Origin: Cirrosporium novae-zelandiae
Lineage: Eukaryota
Assembly (NCBI GenBank): GCA_026023565.1
Contig: JAPETS010000010.1
Coordinates: 804,298-824,297 of the forward strand
Direction of reading: 5' to 3'
DNA: 20,000 bases
A model generated the notes under the pieces. It was not told the origin of the DNA, did no database searches, and saw only the letters and a list, made by a program, of their open reading frames with translations. This document shows positions 1 through 19,720 of the stretch, piece by piece (position 1 is the stretch's first letter; every line of letters begins with the position of its first letter). The translations under genes and the position numbers were made by a program.

Positions 1-628
1 ATCACAGCTTGAATATTTCACCATCGGTTTTGCGTCCTATACTTTTCTGATATATGGGAGTTTTTGGAACAAGCCACAAGGTATTACAATGCCAATATAT
101 ATCAATGCAAGCCGGCGCCCTACCATAACAGAACTTGCCCACCTGGCAATGAAAGGGCCTATTGGCTTTTACAACTCTTTTAATCCACCGAGACATTGGA
201 TCCCAAACCTTGCATTCCATCGCAGAGTATCCAAAGATGATGTTATAAGAACCTCACCAAAATTATTCATACTAGGAGCTTTTTATGTAGCTGCTGTATT
301 CGCATACGAGTTCGGCTTTAGTTGGGTGTTTCAATTCCCTACTCTAATGGAAAAATTACTCTGGAGAATCTCTTATGTGATATCTATTAGTGTTCCAATT
401 ATCATTGGCTTAACTTTAGGATTTCGAAAGCGAACTAAGTCCCCTAAACGGTACGCAAGTCTCAGTAAGACATCTAGAGTTAGCATCGGGATATTTACAA
501 AGCTGGGGTTGGGGATCTATATCTTAGCACGCCTTTACATCACTGTTGAGATCTTTCGTACTTTCTGTTACCTGCCCCCAGACGCCTTTCGCACCACTTG
601 GGCTTCCAGTATCCCTCATATAGGCTGA
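1..628 (+). CDS. 3' part of an uncharacterised fungal multi-pass membrane protein gene (5' end outside window)
   Basis: The frame is open from position 2 (SQLEYFTIGFASYTFLIYGSFWNKPQGITMP...), so Met at 89 is internal. It has several hydrophobic segments. The LExxTxxF...YxxFWxKP, WxFxFPTxxEKLLWR and YILARLYIxVExF..LPPDAF..TW motifs are ones I recognise from a widespread fungal membrane protein family of unknown function. TGA at 626-628. Confidence 0.8.
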   Translation, partial: SQLEYFTIGFASYTFLIYGSFWNKPQGITMPIYINASRRPTITELAHLAMKGPIGFYNSFNPPRHWIPNLAFHRRVSKDDVIRTSPKLFILGAFYVAAVFAYEFGFSWVFQFPTLMEKLLWRISYVISISVPIIIGLTLGFRKRTKSPKRYASLSKTSRVSIGIFTKLGLGIYILARLYITVEIFRTFCYLPPDAFRTTWASSIPHIG

Positions 629-2963: not shown

Positions 2964-5037
2964 CTATAGACCGATTAGACGGAGCCTCTCCATCCGTAGC
3001 CTAACTTCCTCCGTCTGTAGACTGACCCTCTTCGTCTGGTCTATTTCCTTCCCTGCGCTACCTTTCTTTTCCCTTCTTCTTTTAGGCTGTTCTTTTACGA
3101 CTATCCGGAGTTGTATCGTGGACATGATGGACCAACCGCCTATTTGGGAATATGTCAAGATGATATCCTTTCCAGACCGTAGAGATTTTACCAATAGCTT
3201 TGGGCAACAGTCTATGGTATATTGACAACTTTTGGGTATCCTTGTCTCACAATAGGTATACTGGTCAGATTGAGCTGAAGATTCCCACGGAATATCGACA
3301 ATCAGATCCGCAGCTGCCACACCCCCTAGTTCATCGAATACACATTCCGCTGCTCCAAAGCCCCCACCCACTCCATAGCCCCAATCCACACAGATGGCGA
3401 ATTTCTCTTTGGAGGTTTTGTTCTGATATACAATCATGCCTCTATCATTTTCACGCATAAAATGATTTAGGGTGCATGTCGTTTCTGAAGTATGTAAAAA
3501 GCTTACCCACCAGCGTTGATCAGGCTCGCACATGGTAAAGTTGGCAGATAGTGCTCCATCATTGACTAGAAGCACCTCGATATCCTGGTATTTCAGCGCG
3601 AACCCTCTATTGTATTCTTGTGTCGGTCTAGCGAGGTCCAGAATCGGGTTCGTTATATAAATATCCTCAAGTATTAAAAAACGACAGCTGAGCTCATCTG
3701 GATTGATATGTAATATCATCGGCCTTATCCGCACATATTTTCCCGAGTCTGTTTTCTATAGCGTTATGGCGATAATTTTATCGTCTTTATCCTGGCACGT
3801 TAAATACGCATTGAACAAAGGCCCTGGATAGTCTGATATGGGCCCGTGTTTTTTATCGTCGTAGCGTTCGAGGAGAAAAGAAACAGGAATTCCATGAGAG
3901 TATTGTGAATACATAGTTGGAGGACGGGAGCTATTTTTGATCCAAGCCTTGTCATACGGTCGATTGCGAGGCACAATACGCTTATATTCACTGCCGAAGC
4001 AATTCAGAGTTGGGGCAAAAAGAGGTAAAGGAGGTAAATTCCCTTCGCGTGGTCTAATCTTAGTTAATATCAACTAGTAATATAGGAATTTAGTATAAAT
4101 AAATCATACAGAAAACGGTCGTCATCCCATATAAATATGCTGTGATCAGAAAGCGTTTTGAAGAATTCCATTTGAAGTCTAAAAAAAGCCCTTGTTTCTC
4201 CTTCTCCGTATATGATTGGCATATTTATTCCGAAAAGTCCAAGAAGCGAATATATTTTATCTTCTTCTCGCGTTGTAGATCGATATGCCGCCCCGTGAAA
4301 TTTTATCGAACCATTAAAATCTTGAAGTATATTAAGATTTTGACTTGACAAAACTGTTTGGTCAATCCAAGTAATTTCAGTAAGTGGCTCTGCTAAATGT
4401 GATCGACAACCCATATAATCCCAATCTCTGTTGTAAAATAACACTTCTTTAGGAGCAATTAATTCCTGCAATGTCCATCCTCTTGAAAACCATCTTGGCG
4501 CTAGGGACCAAGATATATTCATCCAAGATTCTGAAATATTTTTACCGTTCTGAGAACGGACTTGATCAGTATCAGAAAGGTAGGCAAAGCATATTTCCGC
4601 ATCTCTGTACCAAGCAAACATCGAGTTAATAGCTTCAGAAAGCTCGGCGCTGGATTTCTGACCTATACAGCAAGTGTCAATCCACACATACAAAAGTCCA
4701 TGTGTACGTATTTTTTGGCAACATCTTTCAATTTTGAACCAAGCCTTTTCCTTTTTTTTTGGCACGTTGAAGCTGTAACTTGTGTCAACGATATTTTAAG
4801 CATAGTTTGATGATGAAGTTTTACCGGGAGTAATCCTGGCAGGTGTTGAGTTTCTGGCTGTAGATTTTTAATGTCCGTACATAGCTTGCGGAATTCTACT
4901 TCATAAGGAGACGGCTGTAGGTCCTCAAACAACACCTCATCCCCATCCCATGCATGAGATAGAATCGCGTAAGGTGGAGCCCTGCTAGGACTAGAGAAAC
5001 TTTCGAGTTTATATGTGTCGATACTAAGCAACCTCAT
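2964..5037 (-). pseudogene. HET-domain (heterokaryon incompatibility, HET-E1 N-terminal-like) gene with one frameshift and one nonsense codon; ~672 aa if repaired
   Basis: HET motifs MRLL..., PPYAILSHAW..DEV.FEDL, YVWIDTCCI..SSAELSEAINSMFAWY, RWFSRGWTLQELIAP and TTREEDKIYSLLGLFGINMPIIYGEG. One base is missing in the T9 run at 4752-4760 (adding one fuses the first two ORFs). A 56-nt GT-AG intron at 4109-4054 joins in frame. In-frame TAG at 3758-3756 (IAITL*KTDSGKYVRIRP). Confidence 0.88.
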
Positions 5038-5098
5038 GATGGAAGCCGTTAAGGATAATCTTCAATGAAAGGTAGATGTATAAAAAATAGGAGAAGTG

Positions 5099-6847: not shown

Positions 6848-8807
6848 TTAAACTTCATCTATATTGTCGCTATTGTTGCTTCTTTTCTCACATTGTTTCC
6901 CTAGTCGTTTATGGGACCCCCATTTCCAATAACCCAAGGTGATGATTGTCAGGGGGATTGAGAGTGCAAAGTATACCCATATGTAGGGTGAAATTTGGAG
7001 TTTGGGTTGGGGGAAGGAGCTTTGGGTTTGGGTTTGGCTTGGGTTGTCTTCTATGTCGAAGAATCCCATTCCGAAGAAGCCCTAGATTTGTTGTCGGTTA
7101 TTGTTGTTAGAGGAAATGTAGAACGCGGGTGGGGACTTACTGCGATATAAGTGGAGGGGAGATATATCAAGGTAACGACAGTGATGACGCGGATGGTGGC
7201 GCTGTCGTCTACTGTTGCCTTGGTTTGTTGAACCATGTGGTCTGATACCGCCTGTGAGGTATCTTGATTTTTCAAATTGAAGGTGTCGGTAAGCTGCAAA
7301 CCTCGTTCGAGGTATTTTTTAGTGACTTTATTCAACACCAATAGCTCTTATTGCATTGTTATGCGTCGCTAAATTTTAAAAAAAAAAGGATTGAGGTTAG
7401 AGAAGGTATATACCTACCTGCTGGGAAGTACTCTCAATCCTCGTGAGTAAAAATTTCACGTTCTGTTCGTACCCGGATATCTTTATGAGATAATTGTCGA
7501 GCATTTCTTGCACTTGCATTTGATCTTTAGACTTCTTGCTTCCCGAGAGGAGAGTTGTATTGATTATCTGAAGTTGCTTCAACGTTTCAAGACAAGAACT
7601 GAATATTGACGAAAGAGGAGTAAGGCGCTTTTCAAGGAATTGCAGGGTTGAAAACATTCTGTAATCGACAGAAAGCCTTTTAGTGATAATAACAGTTAGG
7701 ACGTTCCTCGACTATCGCTTCATTAGAACGTGTTTCTAGGGTATACTCTAATCCTATTGCATTAGTCTTACTAGTATCAAGAGCTTTTCTTCATAGTATG
7801 CCATATACCACCGCCAGTTGTCAACATATGTCGAAATCAGTAAAATGTGAACTAAAAAAGGGTGTCGACTAATCTCTATAGATTCAGATGGCGATTTCAA
7901 GCAATTATCCAACTGCATGCGAGCAGCTGCATCTTTTTTCGGGTGGATGATAATCCATATATTCTTCATTGCTTTTGTGTCAAGTTGATGGTATACCCCA
8001 GTTTGACGGATTGACCAGGGGTCGCCATCCTCTTCCGGATATTGATTTTGTTCTGGGTACTTGAAGAGATATGCGATCTCTGCATAGGAGATAGAAGAAA
8101 ATTAGTAACCTTCCAAATTTAAAAGTTAATAAAGTGAGTTGAGAGTAAATTCCTGTACCAAGAATATTGTTTCTGTATGCTTTCCACATAGCTCCAGAAT
8201 ATGCCTCCTCGACTTCCAAAAACTTACGACTGAAAAAATATATTACATGAAGAAACTCTATCGCAACCTTGTGATAGGTCATGATTAACATCAGCATGTC
8301 TTGGGAGACATTTAAGGGCGTCCATGAATGCTGCTGCCAAATCGATCTAGAGAGGATCGGCTATCAACTTATTGCTCAATAGCGAAACGTTTCCCTGATG
8401 TCCTCCACTTTCGAATTATATATATACTTACATGACTCTTGTTGAGTAATTTTTACTTCTGTCGTCGTAAAGATAGCGTGCCATGGACGATGTATCCACG
8501 AATTCATGACATCTGCATCGAGCCAACGAGGCCCATCCTTCACCTGGGTCCTTTAGCCCTACCCAAGGAGAAAGATGATTAGGTTGTGCAAGTGCTTGGA
8601 AGATTTACTGATATTTGTGACCCCCTCCTTGTTGAGACATGGTAAACTTGCGTCTGAAGTAGTAGCATCAAGTAGATCAACTTTAATATCATGAGGCTTC
8701 TGTGTAAAAATACCAGAAGCATGACTAGCCAACTGCTTTTGAAGCGCAGACTCATATCCGGGCCCAGTGTAATGATCACTAGTTGCAAATAGCTGGCTGG
8801 GAAGCAT
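6848..8807 (-). CDS. Fungal divergent CorA-like (CorA/ZntB superfamily) membrane protein, ~500 aa, 7 exons
   Basis: Exons 8807-8609, 8558-8432, 8346-8159, 8079-7772, 7711-7418, 7293-7141 and 7081-6848 (1503 nt, all GT-AG, frame-consistent). Motifs SIWQQHSWTPLNVS, DPWSIRQTGVYHQ, HPFLVHILL...NWRWY, and a C-terminal two-TM unit DSATIRVITVVTLIYLPSTYIAGFFGMGFF ... IWVYFALSIPLTIITLGYW. Confidence 0.88.
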
Positions 8808-10356
8808 AATAATTAATTTTTCAGGACAGAATAGTAATAACAACGGATATTGAGACTGCTTGGATTAAAGATCAAAGATAGCACATGTTGAGTACGAGGG
8901 AAGGTGCGCGATGAGGGATTATAACCAAACAGGCATATACAGTAAGGCTAAAACTAATGTTCATAATTGCAGCCTTGCTAAGGTCTGGATTCGAGATACA
9001 TCCTTATATTTACTTCTAAGGCGGAATTTTCAACCCGACTTGCTTCAGTTCTTAGAGAGTAGTTTCCTAGAGGAATTTTAAATAAAAATGAACTTTAGTT
9101 GCATTATTCCAGGCAAGAACAATTTAGGATGGTACAAAGAAAATATTTTGTGTCCTAAGCGTTGTTCAAGCAACACAGAAACATCATGCCTGCACTTAAT
9201 CCCCCATGCATAGCCTGTAGCAAAAGGAACATTTCAGATCCTTGTTATCACTAATTTCCTTATCCTTGATTATACTCTTCCTGTGCCGTTCTACTTCCAT
9301 ATTAAGAACTTAGCATATTGCATCCATGAATATTTCACGAAACCCCTATAAACTGTGAGACCTTACTCTAATTCATCCTTTCAAAGTACCCAATTGACGT
9401 TAGTAATTAATATGCTTAGAACCCTTTACTGATATCGAACTAACCTTAGTGAGTTCTCGAGGAGCATCGTAGACCCAGATATCGTTGATCAACTGTACTT
9501 AAATAAGTAGCTAACCAACCTGCTTAGCAAGAGCCTACCTGGATGTTAAACGAAGATTGATTTGGAAATGTCTTCCGAAGCAATGCTTCAAGAATTTGGC
9601 GTCTGATGTAACGTCTGGCGGCCGTCCAAGTGCCCATTGCTGAAGAATGTAAGGGGTAGCGAGGTGGCTGTATGAAATTGCGATTGAGCTGAAAACTTTT
9701 CCCTAGCCTGGCAGACATAAGCAGGTTTTATATCCTGGAATTCTCTAGTTCGCGTTCGTTTTCCCCTCACTTTGATCTGGCGTCGCTATTCGGTTGCATT
9801 GAATACCTAGGTACTTAGGTATGCATATAATCAGCCTTGTTAATAGTCTGTGTAACGCCGATAACCAATATATGGAAGCATGGTGACCCTTCGACCGCAT
9901 GAAGCTTACCACCACCCCAATTCAATATTGATACATATTGTACTAATCGAAAGGACAGAATAAGAAATGGAATCATTTAGCTAGAGAGCATGGGGCTGGG
10001 ACACGAATACTACTCGAGTAGTTATCTCGTGGGCGTTCGAGTATTTTTTAACCGAAGCCCTCGATGCAATAAGACTAGCCAGTGGGCAGGACTTTTTTTA
10101 ACTACCCTTCCCAAGGGTGGTCCCCCGCCCTTGAGCGACCTTATTCATATATGAATCGTGACAAGGCTATGCTCCATACTATTGAGGTGCGCTTAAGATG
10201 TCACCAAACGGGCACGTCTGCCTCTCGGAGACTTGTATAAGTAATTCGCCTTATATCTTTCTTTCACTCCAGAAATCCGGGCAGGTTAATGACTCCTTTA
10301 AACTGTGACTTGGAAATTTTATATTTTACACACCGCGAACACTGACCAGCATCAGC

Positions 10357-13300
10357 ATGGCAGACGGCCGGAATCGTGATCTTGAATCCTCTCGACTAAC
10401 TCGTGCTCAGAACGACCTATCTCATTATGAAGACTCCTCGAGGGTAGGTTCTGGTCAGCAGCCTTCGAGTATGCCTCATGGGCGACACTCTACCCCTAAC
10501 AGCCCATATCCGGATCACGGGGGAAATAACTCCCCCCATTCTCTGAATCGTAGCGCTGATCGCGATATATCTTCTGAAACCGCCCTCAATGAGAACTCAT
10601 CTCCTATTCTAGGCCACAATTCTAGAAGCGATGACTCCCAGCCACCTGGTCCCGATCCTAAATCTTTGAGGCAAGTGATCATAGTCAAAATATTCCATCT
10701 ATCTCCAGTATATAAGCATGCTCAACTAAGTGTAGGCGTGAACTAGCAAAAAGACATATATTTGTTTGTTCCACCAACGGTCTTTCTTATAAAAAACTTG
10801 GCTTATGGGAAATTGACAGATTATTACCATTAGTTCATGCATCGGAATGGGCTTCTACGTTAAGACGGGCACAATTTTCCGGATCGGAGGAGCAGGGGCC
10901 GTTATTTACGGCTTTGCATTCGTGGGCCTTTTATCTCTTGGAGTCATGCATAATTTAGCACGAATGCTTGGAATTTGGCCTGTTCCTGGAGCACTCATCA
11001 TGTACGTGAAGACGTTCGTTGATGAGGATCTGGGCAATATTGTTGGAATATTTTATTGGTAAAGGCCCTATGAAGAAATTGCTTTGATCATTTGGATATA
11101 TTTTTTCTCTTGCGCATCAGCTGACCATAAGTAGCTTCACACAGTACTTCTCCTTCGTAGCATTGGCAACAACCGTCATTAGCCTAGTTGAAATTTTTGA
11201 AACTTCAACCGCTAAATCCATGGGCATCTCTGCAGGAGCGCTTGCACTCCCAATATGGATGAATCTGACAGAAATTCGAGTTGGTGTTCCTAATTTGAGC
11301 TCTTTTAGGCCTGCTACTAAATCTTTACCATAGGTCTTTCGCAAAGGGGTGCTTTTCTTTGGTGGATTGAACCTCGCCATTGCGTTCGCTATTATCATGA
11401 TCATGAATTGGATTAACCCGTCAGGCGAGTAACCAGATAAAAGAGATCATTTATTTGATAAGCTTCTAGGATATTTCCCTGACAGGATTGACTATAGTGA
11501 GCCAAAAACAAGATCATAGTCTAGATCCTTCAGGTTAGTGATTTCGAAAACTCAAAATGTTTTTCTATTCATTGACGTGGTACTATGCTAAATACTGCCC
11601 TGAATATTGAAGCAAGTCGAAATGTTTTCCCACATGACCCGAATTTGCGCGGAAATTGGTGGAGTGCATTTTTGTGAGCTCCTTCCAGCTCAGGATCTTC
11701 ATTCTACATTGTTAATACATTAAAAAGGGCGTCAACTTTCACGGCAGCTTTTGCATTTGCGGGGGTTGAAACTGTTACTGCTATTGCCCAAGAAGCTAGA
11801 TTTAGCCTTTCCAAGGAGGATCAAGAACACCAAGAACAGCAACGACGACAACGAGTCCAACAAGAACAAGGAATAAGAACTCAAGCTGAAGGATGTGAAA
11901 CTCGGCTAGAATGCGAGGACCCTGGAATACAACTCGAACGAACTCGGCAGCAGATTGAAGATCTTGTAAATGACATGACAAAATATTTTCAAAGCTCTGA
12001 AGAAATAACATCAACTGGTGCTCAAGAGAAAATAAACAGGTTACAGCAGCAAATTGATGAAGAAACTCGACTACGAAATGAAATTGATGAAGAAACTCGA
12101 CTACGAAATGAAATTGTGCAACCGAGAAAACCAGATGACAAATTTGAACTTCCTACAAAACTTGTCCCGGCGATACTGACAGTCATATACACTTTGGGAG
12201 GTTGGATCATCACCCAAAACCTTCCATGGAACGATGACAGATTACCCCGGTGGTCATGGGACACAGCAGTCAATGAAAACAGCCTTTCCCTGTTTGTCAT
12301 CAGTGCGGGAGATGAAACAAAGACCTTAGCAAAAGCAGTGACGGCGCTTTTAATCATTAATACGATGGGCACATCAAGTACCGCGTTATTCATTGCATCA
12401 CGAACATTATATGCTTTAACCAAAGACTTGGCTAATGAATCTTCTGGATTAGAATCACGAGATTCATACTTTAGAATCAGGCCCTTAAATAAGTTCCTGA
12501 AGCTTTTGGGAAGAAAGAGCGCATATGACGTTCCCTACGCTGCCGTCTTGGCTTCAGGTCCAATATTTATTTACCTGCCGTTGTTGAAATATGGAATAAG
12601 CGGAGGACAACTTGATATTGTGAGTTTTATCTACCGAATTCTTGGGATACTGATTGCCTAGCACTTACTAGAAATTCTCTTCATAGATTCTCTATGTCTT
12701 TTCTGAAATGGGATCCGTTTGCTGTGTTCTCGTGTGGGGATTCGAGACCTTCGCCGCTTTCAGATTTTTAAAGAGGTAAGTGAGGACAAACTTTTCTGTC
12801 CATTGAATTCCAAAATTTCTGGCGTCGTCATCGGGAACTAACAACTGGTACAACTTATATAGCTTTCATAAACATAAAAAAGATCTTATGATGGATAAAT
12901 CTTTCGAAGGGCGGTCTAAAGTATACCTACCCGTTGACAATAAGCTATGGTACTGGATCCAATGGTGTATCGCAGTATTTTCAATGGCAGGGTGTCTTAT
13001 TGTTGTGTTCGTTGGTGGACCCTTGGCCGCTTGGCAGAATCCTACGGTCGAGCAATATATAGCCGTGTTTTTGATGGTATGTCTTTGGTTCACCTAGATA
13101 CAGTGACAGGACCACAAAGCTGATCTTGAAAAAATTCCCATTTAGCCGGGAATATTTCTCGCTTCCTTGGTTACAGTAAAAGCGTGGAGGTATAGGAACA
13201 GGAACAGGTGGGCAGAATTCTGGTCATGGAAGTCATGGATACTAGCCTTGGAAAATGCGTCAACCCTCGGAGACCAAATTCGTAACCTGGAGAACGTTCG

Positions 13301-13427
13301 GATTCACACGACCACCCACAATGAAGGAAAAGAACTCAACCTAGGGAACCTCTGGGGGGTGATTCCGTCACTTGATTCACAATTTTTTAATAATATACTG
13401 AACAGGATCGGTACAGCAGAGAGGTAG
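10357..13427 (+). CDS. Divergent amino-acid permease-like (APC/YAT family) protein, ~796 aa, 11 exons
   Basis: Exons 10357-10670, 10736-10763, 10820-11058, 11135-11279, 11334-11424, 11498-11533, 11613-11673, 11728-12619, 12687-12775, 12863-13076 and 13146-13427 (2391 nt, frame-consistent; two GC donors). YAT-like motifs LRRELAKRHIF-IITISSCIGMGFY (TM1), WPVPGA...FVDEDLG..VG..Y, AAFAFAGVE...EA (TM6), LFIASRTLYAL and VPYAAV. Confidence 0.85.
12051..12116 (+). repeat. Perfect in-frame 30-bp tandem duplication (IDEETRLRNE x2) within the permease CDS
   Basis: aaattgatgaagaaactcgactacgaaatg at 12051-12080 and 12081-12110, followed by aaattg. Confidence 0.97.
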
Positions 13428-13695
13428 GAGCAGCTAAAGTGCAAAAAGCTGCCAGCAAATATAGGTTAAAGATCCAGAAGTGGAGATCTAAGATTAGGTC
13501 CTCCTATTACGTAGAATGGTTAGGCGTGTGCAAAGGAAAACGATAGGGTGCAGGCACTCGAGATTTACTTTGAAAGTGAGCAACCCAGTCTGTTGAAACA
13601 AACGGGGGAACCTAACCAGGGTCATGTAACCACTTAGGAGGCCTGTACATCTCACTTCTATATTTTAGGCGTCTCTATGGTGATAATCTAGTCTT

Positions 13696-16663
13696 TCACG
13701 AAACTATTTGCTCCCTCAAAGAGAAGAAATATGACCGGCCTTCTGCACAGCTGATAAAAACTCCCACTTCGTCTCCCTTCTCCAACAAGAAAAAATCGTC
13801 TTTATCAGGATCATAGACTATCTTTTCTTTGACCTGAGGCAAATGCAGGGTTGTAAAGTCCGTTATTTCGGCGTCCTCTACGGTAGCTAGGTAAACTTCT
13901 AAGGGGCCTGGCTTACTACCGAGAAAAACTATTTTGCTGCCTTCCTTGTTCGGAAGTATGGCTTTCAATTTTTTTCCATCATAGCTGCACTTGAATTTCT
14001 TGTTAGTGCTCATGTTTTCGCAGATTATCCATTGCTGATGCATGATTCTAATCATCAAACGACCTTTTGGAGAATTCGATAGGGCAAAAGAAGTAAGGAA
14101 AGACTCGGAGATCCCAGTCACCTGGCTATGAGTCAGTTGAAAATTCTCTTGCTTCACGGAGGAGTCAGATATGGAGTATACCAATTTGGAAAAGGGATAT
14201 TTCCCGGGTTGTGACGTGTTGTCGGTGCCCCAGGTAACGATAGAGCCACCCGTTGAATCTTTGGTATAGGCAGCGGCAAGGACTTTGCTATCATCTGAAA
14301 ATTGAAGTTTCTCCACGTTGTAGCCTTGGGCCAGACCTAAGTTTGGCGTCTTGCGGAGCCCCAGTTCCAGTAACTTCTTCACCTCAATTAAATCCGTCCT
14401 TGATAATCCCACTAATGGCATTCTCGACCTTGCTTTCGTTATTAAAATACGAGAGAGTGCCCGGAGGATTTTAGGAACTTACCGATGACATATTTCATTT
14501 CTTTCGTCTTGGTCTTGGCGCACGAGGTTCTCAGTGCGAAAGAGATAGATATGGTGTTTGATGGAGCATGCTATAAACCGGCCATCTGGAGAGATGGCAA
14601 CCTTTTGGACATCGGATCGCTTGACATCTAGGCTTCTTATTATCATTCTACCATTTTCAACTACATCTTGTTGCCATGGGCGTGCAATATTATAAAGGAC
14701 AACCTTGCAAGCCGGTTAGTAAACCACTAAAACCAACGAAGAGTCTGCAACAACAAACCTCAAATTTCAGGGAAGCTGTAATGCCAAGAAGCCATTCAGA
14801 GCTACAAAGAGTCTGCGGACAAAAGTTGAGACACCATTCATGTGTTCCTTGATTTATCGGGACTCTTAGCCTAAGAGTAGGCTCTATCTCATTTTTGTCG
14901 GTTGTTTCCCTAATTTTGTCTACCACAAAAATTTGAATGTCGCCTGTGGAAAATAAGGCAACATATTCCCCGCATGCAGAATGCGCGCGGGACAAAGGTG
15001 ACTTGGGGCTGCTAAGTAAACGATATTGTACCGGGAAGCTTTTGATATCGTCATGTATATGTCGCAGGGAAGTGAAGGCTGCGCTAGGGGACGCCCTATT
15101 ATATGGATCGACGACAAGAAGCTTCTCACGCAAAAAATGCACGATTTGTTGGGCCAGCTCTTTATCAACATCCGTCAAGCATGTTTGCTCATAGGAGTTC
15201 AAGTAAGCATCTACCTTTCCCTTACGACCTCCCTTTATGTGAAAGGCATCGCTTGGGTATCCTTCACTAAAAGAATGTAGAGCCTCCTTGACTTTCGTTG
15301 GGCCGTTATAACTGTGAATAAGGATAAGGAATAGAATACAACCGAATGCCCATATATCAACCTTGCCCGGATTCCAACCGGAAGAAGACTGCTCGGGAGC
15401 GGTATATGTTCCTTCACTTAGCCGGTTATTTCTTGAGCCAGAACGTTCAACGGGACATTCATTTGGTTTCATCACCTTCGCAGAGCCGAAATCGGTTATT
15501 GTGAAAATAATTTCGTCCTTGGTTCCAAGTTTAGCTTTTAGGTTTCGAAATACCAAGATATTTTTAGGCTTTAAGTCACAGTGATAACAGGAAATTGGGT
15601 GATCGATGTTGTCCCAGTTTTCCATCTCACTCAACCATTTCAACCCGCCTAGGACATCCGTCATGCGAGAAATGTTGTCAAGCCTTTCATTCGGCGTGCT
15701 TGGATAACATCCTTTGTTGGCTGGGTAGGCTACCTTAAGGATTGGCAAGGCTTCGTTATTTCCGAGGAGATAATCTTGGAGGTCACATTTTGCTAATGGG
15801 AAGAACAGACTGCATTGAGTTTTTGGGTCGCCTGGAATTCCATGGACAAGACTGGACGTATACATCATGATGCTGTGCGGAGGGGAGCCCTTTATGGAGT
15901 TCTTTATGGATGTTAGTGTATCCCGCTCCTTCTTGAAGTCATTGTACTTCGCTTTTCCGCTGAAGGTCTTGCAGGCCAGATCAATCGGCTAAATTAAAAT
16001 CATTAGAAACCCAAAACTCGCCAGAAGCTGATGTAGCGAACTGACCTCTGAATTCCGCATTGACAAGTTTGTTGACTTCAAAATAAAATGGCCACGTTTG
16101 ATTCTAACCATAGAAACTTTTCCGAAATTGCCTTCTTTGATGAGTCTCTCTTTTGAGTAGGGAGATCTCAAGTGGGGGTCATCATGTACTGAATCCTCTT
16201 CTTGTTCGAGAACGATGGGGAGGAAAAGGTACTGATTTTCAAAGAAGGATTTACCCATCTTATCACCAAACAACTCTTTTGTGGTTTCCTTGTTGAAAGG
16301 AAGATGGGCATCATTTTTCGTTCCTTCTTGTATTACGGAGAGGTTTTCCTTGATCGAATTTTCATCTTCGAAGTCGTAAGAGTATAAAAGTATCGATATA
16401 ATCTTACGGCGACCAGAATTAAGAAACCCAGCCTCACCAGTAATGGTGTTGAGGTACCTTTTAAGCTCGTCATCAGTTTTTCCGGAGCCATATATATACC
16501 GCAGCAAAAGTTGGAGTCTTTCTAATGTCAGAACATTTTCCGCGGTTTCATATGGCATAAAGGGTGTTTGCCTATCCTCATTGTTCACAAGTTGTTCCTT
16601 AAGGCTCCTCGCGAGTTTCTTTATTATAGATGGTGTCACATCTTCTGGAGTATCATCTATCAC
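13696..16663 (-). CDS. Ser/Thr protein kinase with N-terminal helical region and C-terminal degenerate WD40/beta-propeller-like region, ~900-930 aa, 4 exons (start codon uncertain)
   Basis: Exons 16663 (or ATG 16558)-16046, 15988-14759, 14703-14483 and 14428-13696 (GT-AG, frame-consistent). Kinase motifs EGNFGKV, LACK, KKE, HCDLKPKNILV, ITDFG, GTYTAPE, DIWAFGCI and NR. WD-like segments VQKVAISPDGRFIAC and VEKLQFSDDSKVLAA. Confidence 0.87.
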
Positions 16664-17345
16664 CGATTTTCAGAGCTTATAAGTTCAATTCATCAGCAAA
16701 ACCAAGACTGTAACTCACTGTAATTGTAAGGTGCTAGGGTCAAGTGAATAAAAGCTAAGACGCTCCTTAAGAGCTTGCACCATATGGGACTTTCACCACC
16801 TAGAAACGAATTCATAGAATATTATCTTAGTTATGGTGAAGTGGGATAGAGGGTACCTAAATTTGTTTCTTGATCAACATCGATGAGGAATAGGTACAAA
16901 ATCTTACCAAACACCATGTACCTGGTCTACTACGTCCATCCTTGATTTCTTCAAGGAAAGTCAGTTTCTGACATGGGTCCTAGCTGTCTACATTTTAATT
17001 GCTACCCGAGAGTTTTGTATGCCAACCTTCTGTATGTATAACGGTTTGGCACCAGACCTATTATCTTACTTGATACTTTCAATACCTCAGATGTCGCCAC
17101 CGCCTCCCGAACTTCCTCAACAGTAAAATAGATATTAGACACTAGGAGTGGAGATTAGCCTAATAAGGCTAGAGTGTACGGGCCACAAAGCTGACTTTCC
17201 TTGAATAAATCAAGGATTAACCAAGTAAGCACTCGAGTAGCCTCGACCAACGAAACTTAAAATCACAATTCAATGGTTCCTTTCGGAAGTAGATAAACTT
17301 TTATCAGCTACTCGAGTACACACCTATAAGGAATAGATACAGAAC

Positions 17346-17986: not shown

Positions 17987-19444
17987 CTATTCTTCATCCG
18001 AACTTTCTTCGTCGCTGTCTGCCGTCTCCAACCATTCCAAGAATTTCTCAGCGGCCTTACGGACCTTCTTGCTGGTAGCCAAGTCAACATATTTCTTGCT
18101 GGCCTTGGAGCCCCAGTTCTTGACAACTTCTTCAGACACTAGATCTTCTTGGTAATATTGTAAGAGGATAGCAGGCACTTGGGCGATGAGTTTAGGATGG
18201 TCTTTGCCGACAAAACGTTCAGTGCCGCCGAGGAAGGCCTTTTCGTGGCGTTCGGAGGTGATCATCTGATAGGATGTTAGCGTAAATATAATGCAAACAT
18301 ATATAGATAAATTACCTTCTTGAGCATTCCAGCACGCTTAGGGATCTGTTTGATGATATTGTCATCGAAGATGGTCTGAGCGAGGACAGCGAGAGTCTTG
18401 TGCTTGATCTCGATACCAAGTTCTTTAGCTTTCATGTAAATCTCGACATCTTCGACTTCACAAACGCCGCCAGGCTTCTGTCCAGCCGAAGAAATGATCC
18501 AGCTACCAAGAACATCATAAGGATTTTCGCCTCCTTCCTCTTCCTCTTCATCAAAGGCAAGAGAGCGTTTGAGATCATCAGGAAGCTCGTTAGCTCTAGC
18601 CTTGACGGCTTCTTCGGAGACATCAACAGCCCAGTCCTCATCCTTGACTTCAGTAGGATGATTTGGAAGTGTCTGTGCCTCGGTCTTGATACGGCGTGTA
18701 AATTCATCATCACTGCCTGCATCAACAATAGCATCGCCGTTTTCACCATCAGCGTTATCAGAGTTGCTATCGGCAGCGCTACCGTTATTAGGGCTATCTT
18801 CACCATCGCCATTGGCACGACCATTAGGGCTTCCATTTTCCTTATTCTTTTCCGCGGCTTTACGGTTCTTCTTATTAGCCTTATCTTTCTTGCCTTTCTT
18901 AGGCTGGTTCTTCAAAATAAAAGAGCTGAGCTTTAGGCGGAGGTCGACGTCCGAACGTTGACCGCAGGCCTTGCAGTCCAAGAGAATATGGCCATCTTTG
19001 ATGGTGACATCGGTTTCAGGGTTCTTGCATTTCTTACATAAGACGAACCTGCTGATAAAGCCATCGAGATAGTCCTGGAGTTTGGAAGCGTCATGAGCTC
19101 CGTTGATGATCCAGCGGTCATCAGAAGGGTTTGTGTTGGTTTGAGCACCAAGTTCGAAGCCAAAGTACTTGATTACATCTGGATTTTCACCGTTAGTGGG
19201 TGGCAAATCAAGCCAAGAGTAGGGTAAACCTTACAAGAAGGGGGGCGAGCCAAAGACTGAGCGACACTACTCAAATTCACAACGACGGTCTTGATACCAT
19301 TTCCTTTGCCCTCGATTTTAGACTGGAGCCGCTCCATCTTATAACGATAGAAGGGGTCGGAGACATCCTGAAAGATATTAGTATTGTAATACTTGATCAG
19401 ATAGTAGAATCTCAACATACCCGACGAATGTTGATAGTAGCCAT
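17987..19444 (-). CDS. TIF5: Eukaryotic translation initiation factor 5 (eIF5), 432 aa, 4 exons
   Basis: Exons 19444-19421, 19367-19235, 19178-18316 and 18265-17987. MATINIRRDVSDPFYRYKM..IEGKGNGIKTVVVN, YFGFELGAQT, zinc finger CKKCKNPET...CKACG, and the C-terminal W2 acidic/aromatic box FLEWLETADSDEESSDEE. Confidence 0.98.
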
Positions 19445-19720
19445 TTTGAATGATCAACAATAATACTTTTATTCCAAATAATTTAAAAATCCCTTAATGA
19501 GCGGAGGCAAAGAACATTAAATCTGCAGACTTGACCGACGAGCGACATGCGTAAACATCCAGCTAGAAGCTATTTGGATGTCTAAGTCATCAAGAAGAGT
19601 ATGAGAATGGATGAACCGTCAACCGTAAGAGCGCATTCGTGAACTATAGGGTCTCCTCGATATGCGAAAGGCGTCGAGAATTGGTGAGAACCAAGAGGCT
19701 TTTCCACGACTGGAAGACAT
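19445..19720 (-). promoter_or_regulatory. eIF5 5' leader with six poor-context upstream AUGs / short uORFs
   Basis: Minus-strand ATGs at 19720 (tatATGt), 19636 (cgaATGc), 19590 (ttgATGa), 19558 (tggATGt), 19548 (cgcATGt) and 19517 (ttaATGt). The main start is aaaATGg. The transcription start site is not known. Confidence 0.7.

Follow-up and report, generated by a model that had tools for sequence, protein, structure and literature searches.

A recurring trio of permease-like, CorA-like and protein kinase genes in Pezizomycotina and its probably remodelled copy in Cirrosporium novae-zelandiae

A 20,000 nt stretch of a Cirrosporium novae-zelandiae contig (the window, in whose numbering all positions are given unless a locus is named) contained three adjoining genes, which encode a CorA-like membrane protein, a permease-like protein and a protein kinase. 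Exact database matches identified them as M1834_000782, M1834_000783 and M1834_000784 of a C. novae-zelandiae metagenome-assembled genome. The same three genes recurred together in other fungi, and the permease/CorA-like/kinase trio is a conserved module of Pezizomycotina. We consider it about an even chance that the conserved trio comprises two membrane proteins for transport or sensing, co-expressed and under the control of the kinase, and that Cirrosporium carries a remodelled version of it.

Recurrence was assessed on metagenome contigs, which were scanned with an alignment of the CorA-like family (A1) as the sole query and with the patterns G[ND]PWSIRQ and [ST]Yx[DH][NK]WR[WD]Y. This CorA-only scan yielded 33 loci from 18 lineages, delimited by ≤85% identity in a conserved 105-aa block; L002–L012 were one locus in sister samples and L031–L033 one region in three related fungi. 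Neighbouring genes were sought by tblastn with the kinase and the permease of the window and with some relatives of the kinase. In all seven lineages with at least 2.5 kb of downstream sequence (L001, the L002 group, L013, L015, L019, L028 and the L031 group), the kinase was the nearest gene. The permease was adjacent and head to head in five of the six lineages with at least 3 kb upstream (L001, L002, L013, L015 and L019), and the first protein matches of these divergent pairs were 1.7–2.3 kb apart. L031, the sixth, had its permease 9.3 kb off, beyond the kinase. The other lineages were on contigs of 1.1–2.3 kb, too short to be scored. Pfam analysis of 149 open reading frames (ORFs; at least 110 aa) from nine loci placed the Pkinase and AA_permease domains in the expected ORFs. 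Since only the CorA-like family had served as the query, the recurrence was not imposed by the search. It was far beyond chance, given that approximately 1% of the genes of a fungus encode kinases and an even smaller share encode APC permeases. An earlier note, made from the window's sequence, had held that these were not three unrelated neighbours, and the co-occurrence at non-syntenic loci bears it out.

Outside the window, the trio recurred in at least seven deeply diverged lineages. The identity of the trio's proteins between lineages was 25–60%, which implies long persistence of the arrangement. Beyond the trio, the gene content was unrelated from one locus to the next: the flanks encoded GCV_T, Aa_trans and MFS proteins at L001, GH18 and ankyrin proteins at L002, and Vta1, BTB, Bax1-I, DUF2196 and epimerase proteins at L013. 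The flanks of L031–L033 contained genes for radical SAM, CYTH, C2H2 and DUF7580 proteins. The DUF7580 gene was located a few kb past the kinase (L032 19751–20809 and L033 18903–19961, both on the plus strand) and was specific to this lineage. Also in L031–L033 (at approximately 9900–11500 in each), the CorA-like gene was inverted relative to the kinase, CYTH and radical SAM flanks: in L031 it pointed the same way as the kinase gene, and the two genes of L032 and L033 were convergent.

The window had the G+C content (34–48%) of fungal DNA. All three genes of the trio were spliced and had open frames, with GT/GC..AG introns of 50–254 nt (Table 1). The compact layout described in the earlier note was confirmed by the spliced models. 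The CorA-like and permease genes were divergent, with 1549 bp between their start codons (previously put at ~1.5 kb), and the permease and kinase genes were convergent, with 268 bp between their stop codons (previously ~270 bp). The right edge drawn in the note, 16663, was too short, because the kinase translation identical to the database protein P0007 begins in the exon at 16815–16719, beyond that edge. An inverted repeat (16928–16967 and 17188–17227, with 40-nt arms that are 85% complementary and 220 nt apart) was located just upstream of this exon; a small foldback element and a structure with a regulatory role are both conceivable.

Table 1. Coordinates of the trio and of the neighbouring genes in the window
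Feature	Position	Strand	Size	Remark
CorA-like gene M1834_000782	6848..8807	-	7 exons, 500 aa	spliced frame open, 6 GT..AG introns of 50-124 nt
CorA-like exons	8807-8609, 8558-8432, 8346-8159, 8079-7772, 7711-7418, 7293-7141, 7081-6848	-		model built here
Upstream region common to CorA-like and permease genes	8808..10356	.	1549 bp	from both gene models
Permease-like gene M1834_000783	10357..13427	+	9 exons, 780 aa	model built here
Permease exons	10357-10670, 10736-10763, 10820-11058, 11135-11279, 11334-11424, 11679-12619, 12687-12775, 12863-13076, 13146-13427	+		
Charged insert of the permease	11798..12118	+	107 aa	between transmembrane (TM) helices TM6 and TM7; 19 E, 17 Q, 13 R, 6 D, 3 K
Kinase gene M1834_000784	13696..16815	-	5 exons, 963 aa	joined exons translate exactly to P0007
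Kinase exons	16815-16719, 16656-16046, 15988-14759, 14703-14483, 14428-13696	-		
HET-domain neighbour, outside the module	2964..5061	-		Pfam HET E 9.2e-11 in ORF 4070-4795
eIF5 neighbour, outside the module	17987..19493	-		eIF-5_eIF-2B and W2 domains, E 9.1e-24, 1.6e-7, 9.8e-21

The CorA-like protein of the window carried an N-terminal domain of the PF26616 type (PWSIRQTGVYH at 8020–7988) and two C-terminal TM-like segments (residues 408–427 and 453–475). The deposited protein, P0001 (274 aa), runs through the donor site of intron 4 and ends inside that intron, so it lacks the C-terminal half, the stalk and both TM helices; its first intron also differs from our model. The new C-terminus aligned with the full-length protein P0002 and with the metagenome loci, including a common intron position. 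P0002 (475 aa), the product of K432DRAFT_406761 of Lepidopterella palustris, was the closest full-length relative, with 52% identity over exon 4, and is named 'CorA-like transporter domain-containing protein' in UniRef. Its match to the Pfam family CorA (PF01544; 24.4 bits, E 2.2e-5) was below the gathering score of 27, and a Pfam scan of the window's CorA-like exon translations gave no match, CorA included. PF26616 was the precomputed label on all six word-search matches; the direct Pfam scan did not return it. The family profile found nothing at an E value of 1 or better among the sequences of solved structures.

The relationship with CorA was indicated by structure prediction on the homologue P0002, along whose length the spliced protein of the window aligns. 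An AlphaFold2 model of P0002, made with a 29-row alignment (A4), had a pLDDT of 73.8 and a pTM of 0.63; in it, an alpha/beta N-domain was followed by three long helices and a pair of TM helices. The top Foldseek matches of this model were all CorA of T. maritima (E 5e-11, approximately 400 columns, TM-score 0.63 by target). The selectivity motif GMN was retained in 12 of the 16 lineages in which it could be assessed, and the remainder had GME (two), GMD (one) or GMS (one). In the window, the corresponding sequence was YLPSTYIA followed by GFFGMGFF, with GMG (7072–7064) in place of the GMN of relatives. The CorA-like genes of the loci had in common an intron exactly between YLPxxFxA and xxFGMN, as located by tblastn. 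A regular expression for the YLP...GMN motif gave no matches on the metagenome loci because this intron splits the motif, and tblastn was used instead. For classical CorA, it is reported that Mg2+ transport ceases when the Asn of GMN is lost. With GMG as its selectivity motif, the Cirrosporium protein has probably altered or lost classical Mg2+ selection. At L033, the CorA-like gene had a frame change and a stop (11031–11165) within the conserved TVDDSATVRVVTLVTLIYLP stretch; it could be a pseudogene or reflect an assembly error.

The Pfam domain AA_permease (PF00324) matched the deposited permease-like protein, P0008, with 65.1 bits (cut-off 24.6) and also matched the exon ORFs, which gives a weak but clear sequence assignment of the M1834_000783 product to this family. 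Compared with P0008, our model has a different TM5–TM6 loop and an additional 28-nt mini-exon (10736–10763), which encodes an R-x-L-x-x-R-H-I motif before TM1; P0008 reads through the first intron and skips the mini-exon. As a predicted gene model, it needs two GC-AG introns (10671–10735 and 11425–11678). The permeases of the loci had in common the subfamily motif WP[IV]..A...[FY]V..FVD.[DE]L and an intron after an R/W-H/Q-I-F motif. Within this subfamily, the permease of the window was the most divergent, with 30–46% identity to the others versus 44–70% among those. When the exons of the kinase and the permease were used in word-indexed searches for homologues, the proteins of the window itself were the sole matches.

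In APC/AA_permease proteins, the unwound segment of TM1 contains G-[ST]-G. In the window, where the TM1 motif is IITISSCIGMGFY (10820–10858), IGMG takes the place of the IGTG of LysP (9eyd). The residue at the place of the Thr was I, L, V and L in L013, L015, L019 and L031, respectively, and was ambiguous in L001 and L002. Since relatives in module loci have the same alteration, the hydrophobic residue is, as judged from the alignments, a trait of the subfamily and no defect of the window's copy. By APC topology, we take the loop between TM6 and TM7, which holds the 107-aa insert, to be cytosolic. The insert contained a perfect 30-nt tandem duplication (12051–12110), encoding IDEETRLRNE twice, which suggests that it grew recently by replication slippage. 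It was absent from all four lineages that hold the stretch in one ORF (L001, L002, L013 and L015).

The kinase, P0007, matched Pkinase in Pfam with 47.6 bits (cut-off 31.7). Its core was active-looking, with the LACK Lys at 15979–15962, HCDLKPKN at 15586–15560, DFG at 15496–15479 and APE at 15403–15389. HxDLKPxN and DFG were kept in all nine locus kinases. An N-terminal domain of ~200 aa (approximately residues 40–235) had relatives only in unnamed ascomycete clusters. The best matches among solved structures were PDK1 and ULK1 (E ~1e-4). An exhaustive HMMER search with the kinase retrieved 626 representatives at E ≤1e-3, of which five were at ≤1e-30, and the best non-self identity was 32%. 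Wherever the 20 representatives that were looked up had a name, they were 'hypothetical' or 'protein kinase domain-containing' proteins of Pezizomycotina. In the locus kinases, coverage by the family profile extended from the N-domain through the kinase core into the beginning of the C-terminal region. In L032 (15613–17109) and L033 (14712–16163), both on the minus strand, the ORF of the kinase N-domain carried C2H2 zinc-finger matches upstream and in frame, which may represent a fusion or an adjacent gene.

The C-terminal region of the window's kinase (15040 to 13699; 411 aa, residues 553–963) is predicted to form a 7-bladed WD40-type propeller. Its AlphaFold2 model had approximately 29 strands, with a pLDDT of 76.1 and a pTM of 0.79. 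Foldseek returned at least 500 matches at E ≤1e-3, and the best were 7-bladed WD40 structures (Vps11, RACK1-type and WDR91; E 2e-11, probability 1.0). At the sequence level, Pfam WD40 (PF00400) matched a single stretch, residues 670–700, with 15.9 bits (cut-off 27, E 0.021). In 30 long homologues, no WD40 match at E 1e-3 or better was found, and Pfam showed only the kinase domain above cut-off. The earlier note had regarded all three proteins as aberrant members of their families. This applies to the GMG motif and the permease insert, both peculiar to the window's copy. Relatives also have the altered TM1 and, in the kinase, the sequence-degenerate C-terminus.

A kinase tree was constructed with 138 rows, comprising P0007, 128 of 149 representatives (21 under 500 aa were excluded) and nine locus kinases. 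All nine locus kinases were placed in one 22-row clade with 99% support, and IQ-TREE on a 43-row subset agreed. The named members of this clade were from Xylographa, Villophora, Aspergillus unguis, Geoglossum, Cudoniella, Rhizodiscina, Dothidotthia and Neofusicoccum, which we assign to Lecanoromycetes, Eurotiomycetes, Geoglossomycetes, Leotiomycetes and Dothideomycetes. The CorA-like protein of the window grouped with P0002 and was nested among the kinase-linked CorA-like proteins. In approximately unbiased (AU) tests, with the groups named after the tree had been seen, neither a sister relationship of the window kinase's clade to the module clade (p 0.715, with a gain of 10.7 log-likelihood units for the constrained tree) nor a placement of P0007 inside the module clade (p 0.463) was rejected. 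As L031 demonstrates, a trio can persist through changes of order and orientation. We read the window's copy, from its sequence and gene order, as a remodelled module that arose by paralogue replacement or by fast divergence and rearrangement. Co-divergence, which the earlier note had proposed as a check, gave weak support for the module: a Mantel test of CorA-like versus kinase proteins yielded r 0.77 and p 0.007 for seven loci, with the near-duplicate pair L001/L002 kept.

In the reading that we favour, the shared upstream region would lead to co-expression of the CorA-like and permease genes, and the kinase would be the dedicated regulator of both membrane proteins. It may dock via its propeller or its N-terminal domain and phosphorylate their cytosolic parts, for which the CorA N-domain, the permease tails and, in Cirrosporium, the 107-aa insert are candidates. 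Uptake or sensing of an amino-acid-like solute might thereby be coupled to the flux of divalent cations. The unit would be a kinase-controlled transport or 'transceptor' system rather than an allorecognition device. Its remodelling in Cirrosporium would comprise a sister-clade paralogue of the kinase on the permease side, the GMG motif and the most divergent permease. A complex prediction for the CorA-like N-domain (residues 1–269) and the kinase propeller, run without controls, scored 0.00 and weighs neither way.

Several observations weigh against a kinase-controlled module of which the window holds a copy. All context loci were on metagenome contigs from few studies, and 11 of the 33 were one locus resampled. 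The permease was non-adjacent throughout L031–L033 and was not seen within 10 kb in L032 and L033. L026 and L027, which have the most divergent CorA-like proteins (GMD), had neither partner within 2.2 kb upstream and 0.9 kb downstream. No 8- to 10-mer was present in at least five of six divergent intergenic regions, and Gcn4, GATA, CreA, PacC, STRE and CGG-repeat sites formed no consistent pattern in these six. Structure prediction of the propeller covered the kinase of the window alone; for a kinase of the module clade, it is at most a lead, given by sub-threshold WD40-like signals with scores ≤0.87. P0007 itself fell outside the 22-row clade, in a separate 7-row clade (99% support) with Xylariales and Neonectria proteins, among them BJ170DRAFT_24559 of Xylariales sp. 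and AK830_g228 of Neonectria ditissima. Its gene is on the permease side, versus the CorA side in six of the seven other lineages. Because of the separate clade and the other side of the pair, its orthology with the module kinase is at most putative. Without the near-duplicate L001, the Mantel correlation of CorA-like and kinase proteins dropped to r 0.59 (p 0.096), and tests involving the permease were not significant. Constraint within one population appeared weak: among eight haplotypes of the L002 locus (~10 kb, a small sample from one study), 17 synonymous and 31 non-synonymous differences were found in 1545 codons, a pN/pS of ~0.55 on 48 changes. Finally, it is from gene order and domain content only that we infer an action of the kinase on both membrane proteins and a coupling of solute and cation handling.

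Other explanations of the trio start from the same linkage. According to the earlier note, the permease is a sensor, the kinase a transducer and the CorA-like protein an effector of non-self or stress-induced cell death, tied to HET incompatibility and resembling bacterial CorA effectors. The linkage on which this proposal rests is real, the distribution is patchy and the positions are non-syntenic. Variation at the third residue of GMN, seen in four of 16 lineages (E, E, D and S) and, as G, in the window, would fit a pore freed of Mg2+ selection; the predicted kinase propeller is a common recognition domain, and a HET-domain gene does lie beside the window's copy. This gene looked broken, being spread over four ORFs with two frame changes, near an A9 run (~4750) and near 4100, and it had an in-frame TAG (3758–3756) in a coding stretch that was continuous apart from it. 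Pseudogene status, as given in the note, is probable; the alternative is assembly errors at the homopolymer. Against a HET-linked role, none of the 149 flank ORFs of the nine other loci contained a HET domain; NACHT and transposase domains were also absent from them. On P0007, Pfam gave only kinase families and the weak WD40 match, with no NACHT or NB-ARC, and no near-identical internal repeats were found in the propeller. GMN was, moreover, kept in most lineages. Classical het loci carry very divergent alleles; the eight L002 haplotypes were 97.5–99.97% identical, and the trio was less variable than its flanks, with variable sites per kb numbering 24.6 (permease), 15.4 (intergenic region), 15.1 (CorA-like gene) and 9.5 (kinase) versus 142 and 518 in the flanks. 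In this small sample from one study, the L002 locus does not look like a het locus, and we regard the cell-death proposal as unlikely. Just outside the trio at L002 (5501–6542 and 14866–15500), the sequence was indel-rich and 10 to 50 times more variable than within it. A related possibility, which we hold to be unlikely too and a shade more so, is a new eukaryotic signalling or defence module in which an APC-fold ligand sensor and a WD40-kinase transducer would open a CorA-fold pentameric gated pore, leading to ion influx and growth arrest or death. Such a module would be, by analogy, a fungal counterpart of RIPK–MLKL kinase-to-pore signalling and of bacterial CorA effectors, in which proteins with GMG, GME, GMD or GMS would form pores that are no longer selective for Mg2+.

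Two further explanations concern the integrity of the unit. The trio may move or be inherited as a block, for example if a large mobile element carries it or if the segment is transferred horizontally, in which case its products need not cooperate. Non-syntenic flanks and patchy taxonomy agree with this, as do the very variable flanks around a conserved core in one population. The long persistence implied by the divergence between lineages speaks against it, as does an internal order that was rearranged at least twice (in the window and in L031) without break-up of the trio; in addition, no transposase, recombinase or terminal repeats were found in the window or the loci. We consider block transfer quite improbable. 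Least probable in our judgement, and very improbable, is that the unit of the window consists only of the permease and the CorA-like protein, with M1834_000784 a chance neighbour and the true module kinase gone from the CorA side, today occupied by the broken HET gene. The placement of the window's kinase outside the clade of all nine module kinases and on the other side of the pair would be accounted for in this way. The kinase nevertheless has the same family and architecture as the module kinases (N-domain, kinase core and C-terminal region), and the AU tests allow a position sister to or inside their clade. By a rough, uncomputed estimate, chance adjacency of a member of a few-copy family would be ~0.1%. 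No relic of another kinase was seen: a search of the window outside the kinase gene for a second, decayed kinase gave nothing better than E 0.016. Furthermore, the gene order of L031 differs as well, and its trio persists.

The conserved trio can be compared with several known systems. With the CorA/MIT channels (CorA of T. maritima; fungal Alr1, Mnr2 and Mrs2), the CorA-like family shares the fold predicted for P0002, namely the alpha/beta N-domain, stalk helices and two TM helices, and in 12 of 16 lineages the GMN between the TM helices. It differs in its fungal-specific N-domain, in Pfam CorA matches that were below cut-off for P0002 and missing for the window's exons, in the GMG of the window and in being encoded with a kinase and a permease. 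In the yeast SPS system, the permease-like Ssy1, the WD40-like adaptor Ptr3, Ssy5 and the casein kinase Yck1/2 signal external amino acids. The trio likewise combines a permease-like protein, a WD40-like part and a kinase, the latter two joined in one protein. In contrast to the trio, the SPS genes are unclustered and include no CorA-like component; conversely, the trio has no Ssy5-type protease, and its permease, with an N-terminal domain of ~105 aa, lacks the long N-terminal domain of Ssy1. No homology of the trio's kinase to Yck was seen. Yeast kinases of the Npr1/Hal4/Hal5 type control permeases and cation transporters. They resemble the trio in the concept of a dedicated Ser/Thr kinase governing nutrient permeases and cation transport, whereas they belong to another kinase family, have neither the N-domain nor the propeller and are encoded by dispersed genes.

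The CorA effectors associated with bacterial type III CRISPR systems are activated by a nucleotide second messenger. They are, like the protein described here, CorA-family membrane proteins genetically linked to a sensing system; however, they are bacterial, they come without a kinase or permease, and their link to the fungal family is one of fold only. Fungal HET/NLR-WD40 proteins of the HET-E/D type have a WD40-type propeller, as predicted for the kinase, and a HET neighbour was present in the window only. Unlike them, the trio kinase has no NACHT or NB-ARC domain and no near-identical repeats, and allelic diversity at L002 was low.

Outside the trio, the gene for eIF5 expected from the earlier note was confirmed by its domains (Table 1). 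The description of the region as scarred by transposable elements found no support, since none of 31 ORFs (16 inside and 15 outside the trio) matched a transposon domain and no long repeats were present. No tRNA genes or Rfam families were detected in the window. A region without a clear gene, at 1931–2074, contained nested inverted repeats of the low-complexity GACCAGACC type. At the left edge, a 208-aa open frame (2–628, plus strand) runs out of the window; it has a multi-pass membrane look and no Pfam match.

Among the main texts covered, a literature search on the trio, on PF26616 and on 'CorA-like transporter domain' found no description. The 'CorA' matches examined in PMC12881547 and PMC12258605 were the word 'coral', and PMC5307856 contained no whole-word CorA. 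To our knowledge, no described system has the composition of the trio. The module thus appears undescribed, its novelty lying in the composition, as each component has a known fold. Fungi rarely have conserved clusters of genes outside metabolism. Two deposited gene models, M1834_000782 and M1834_000783, were corrected, and the deposited CorA-like protein had lost its whole membrane part. The trio connects three large families of 'hypothetical' proteins: the CorA-like proteins of the PF26616 type, an ascomycete kinase family and a very divergent permease subfamily. For each of these, gene order now provides a testable partner and a first functional hypothesis, in which a solute carrier and a cation channel would be under kinase control or, alternatively, a sensor would signal to a pore.

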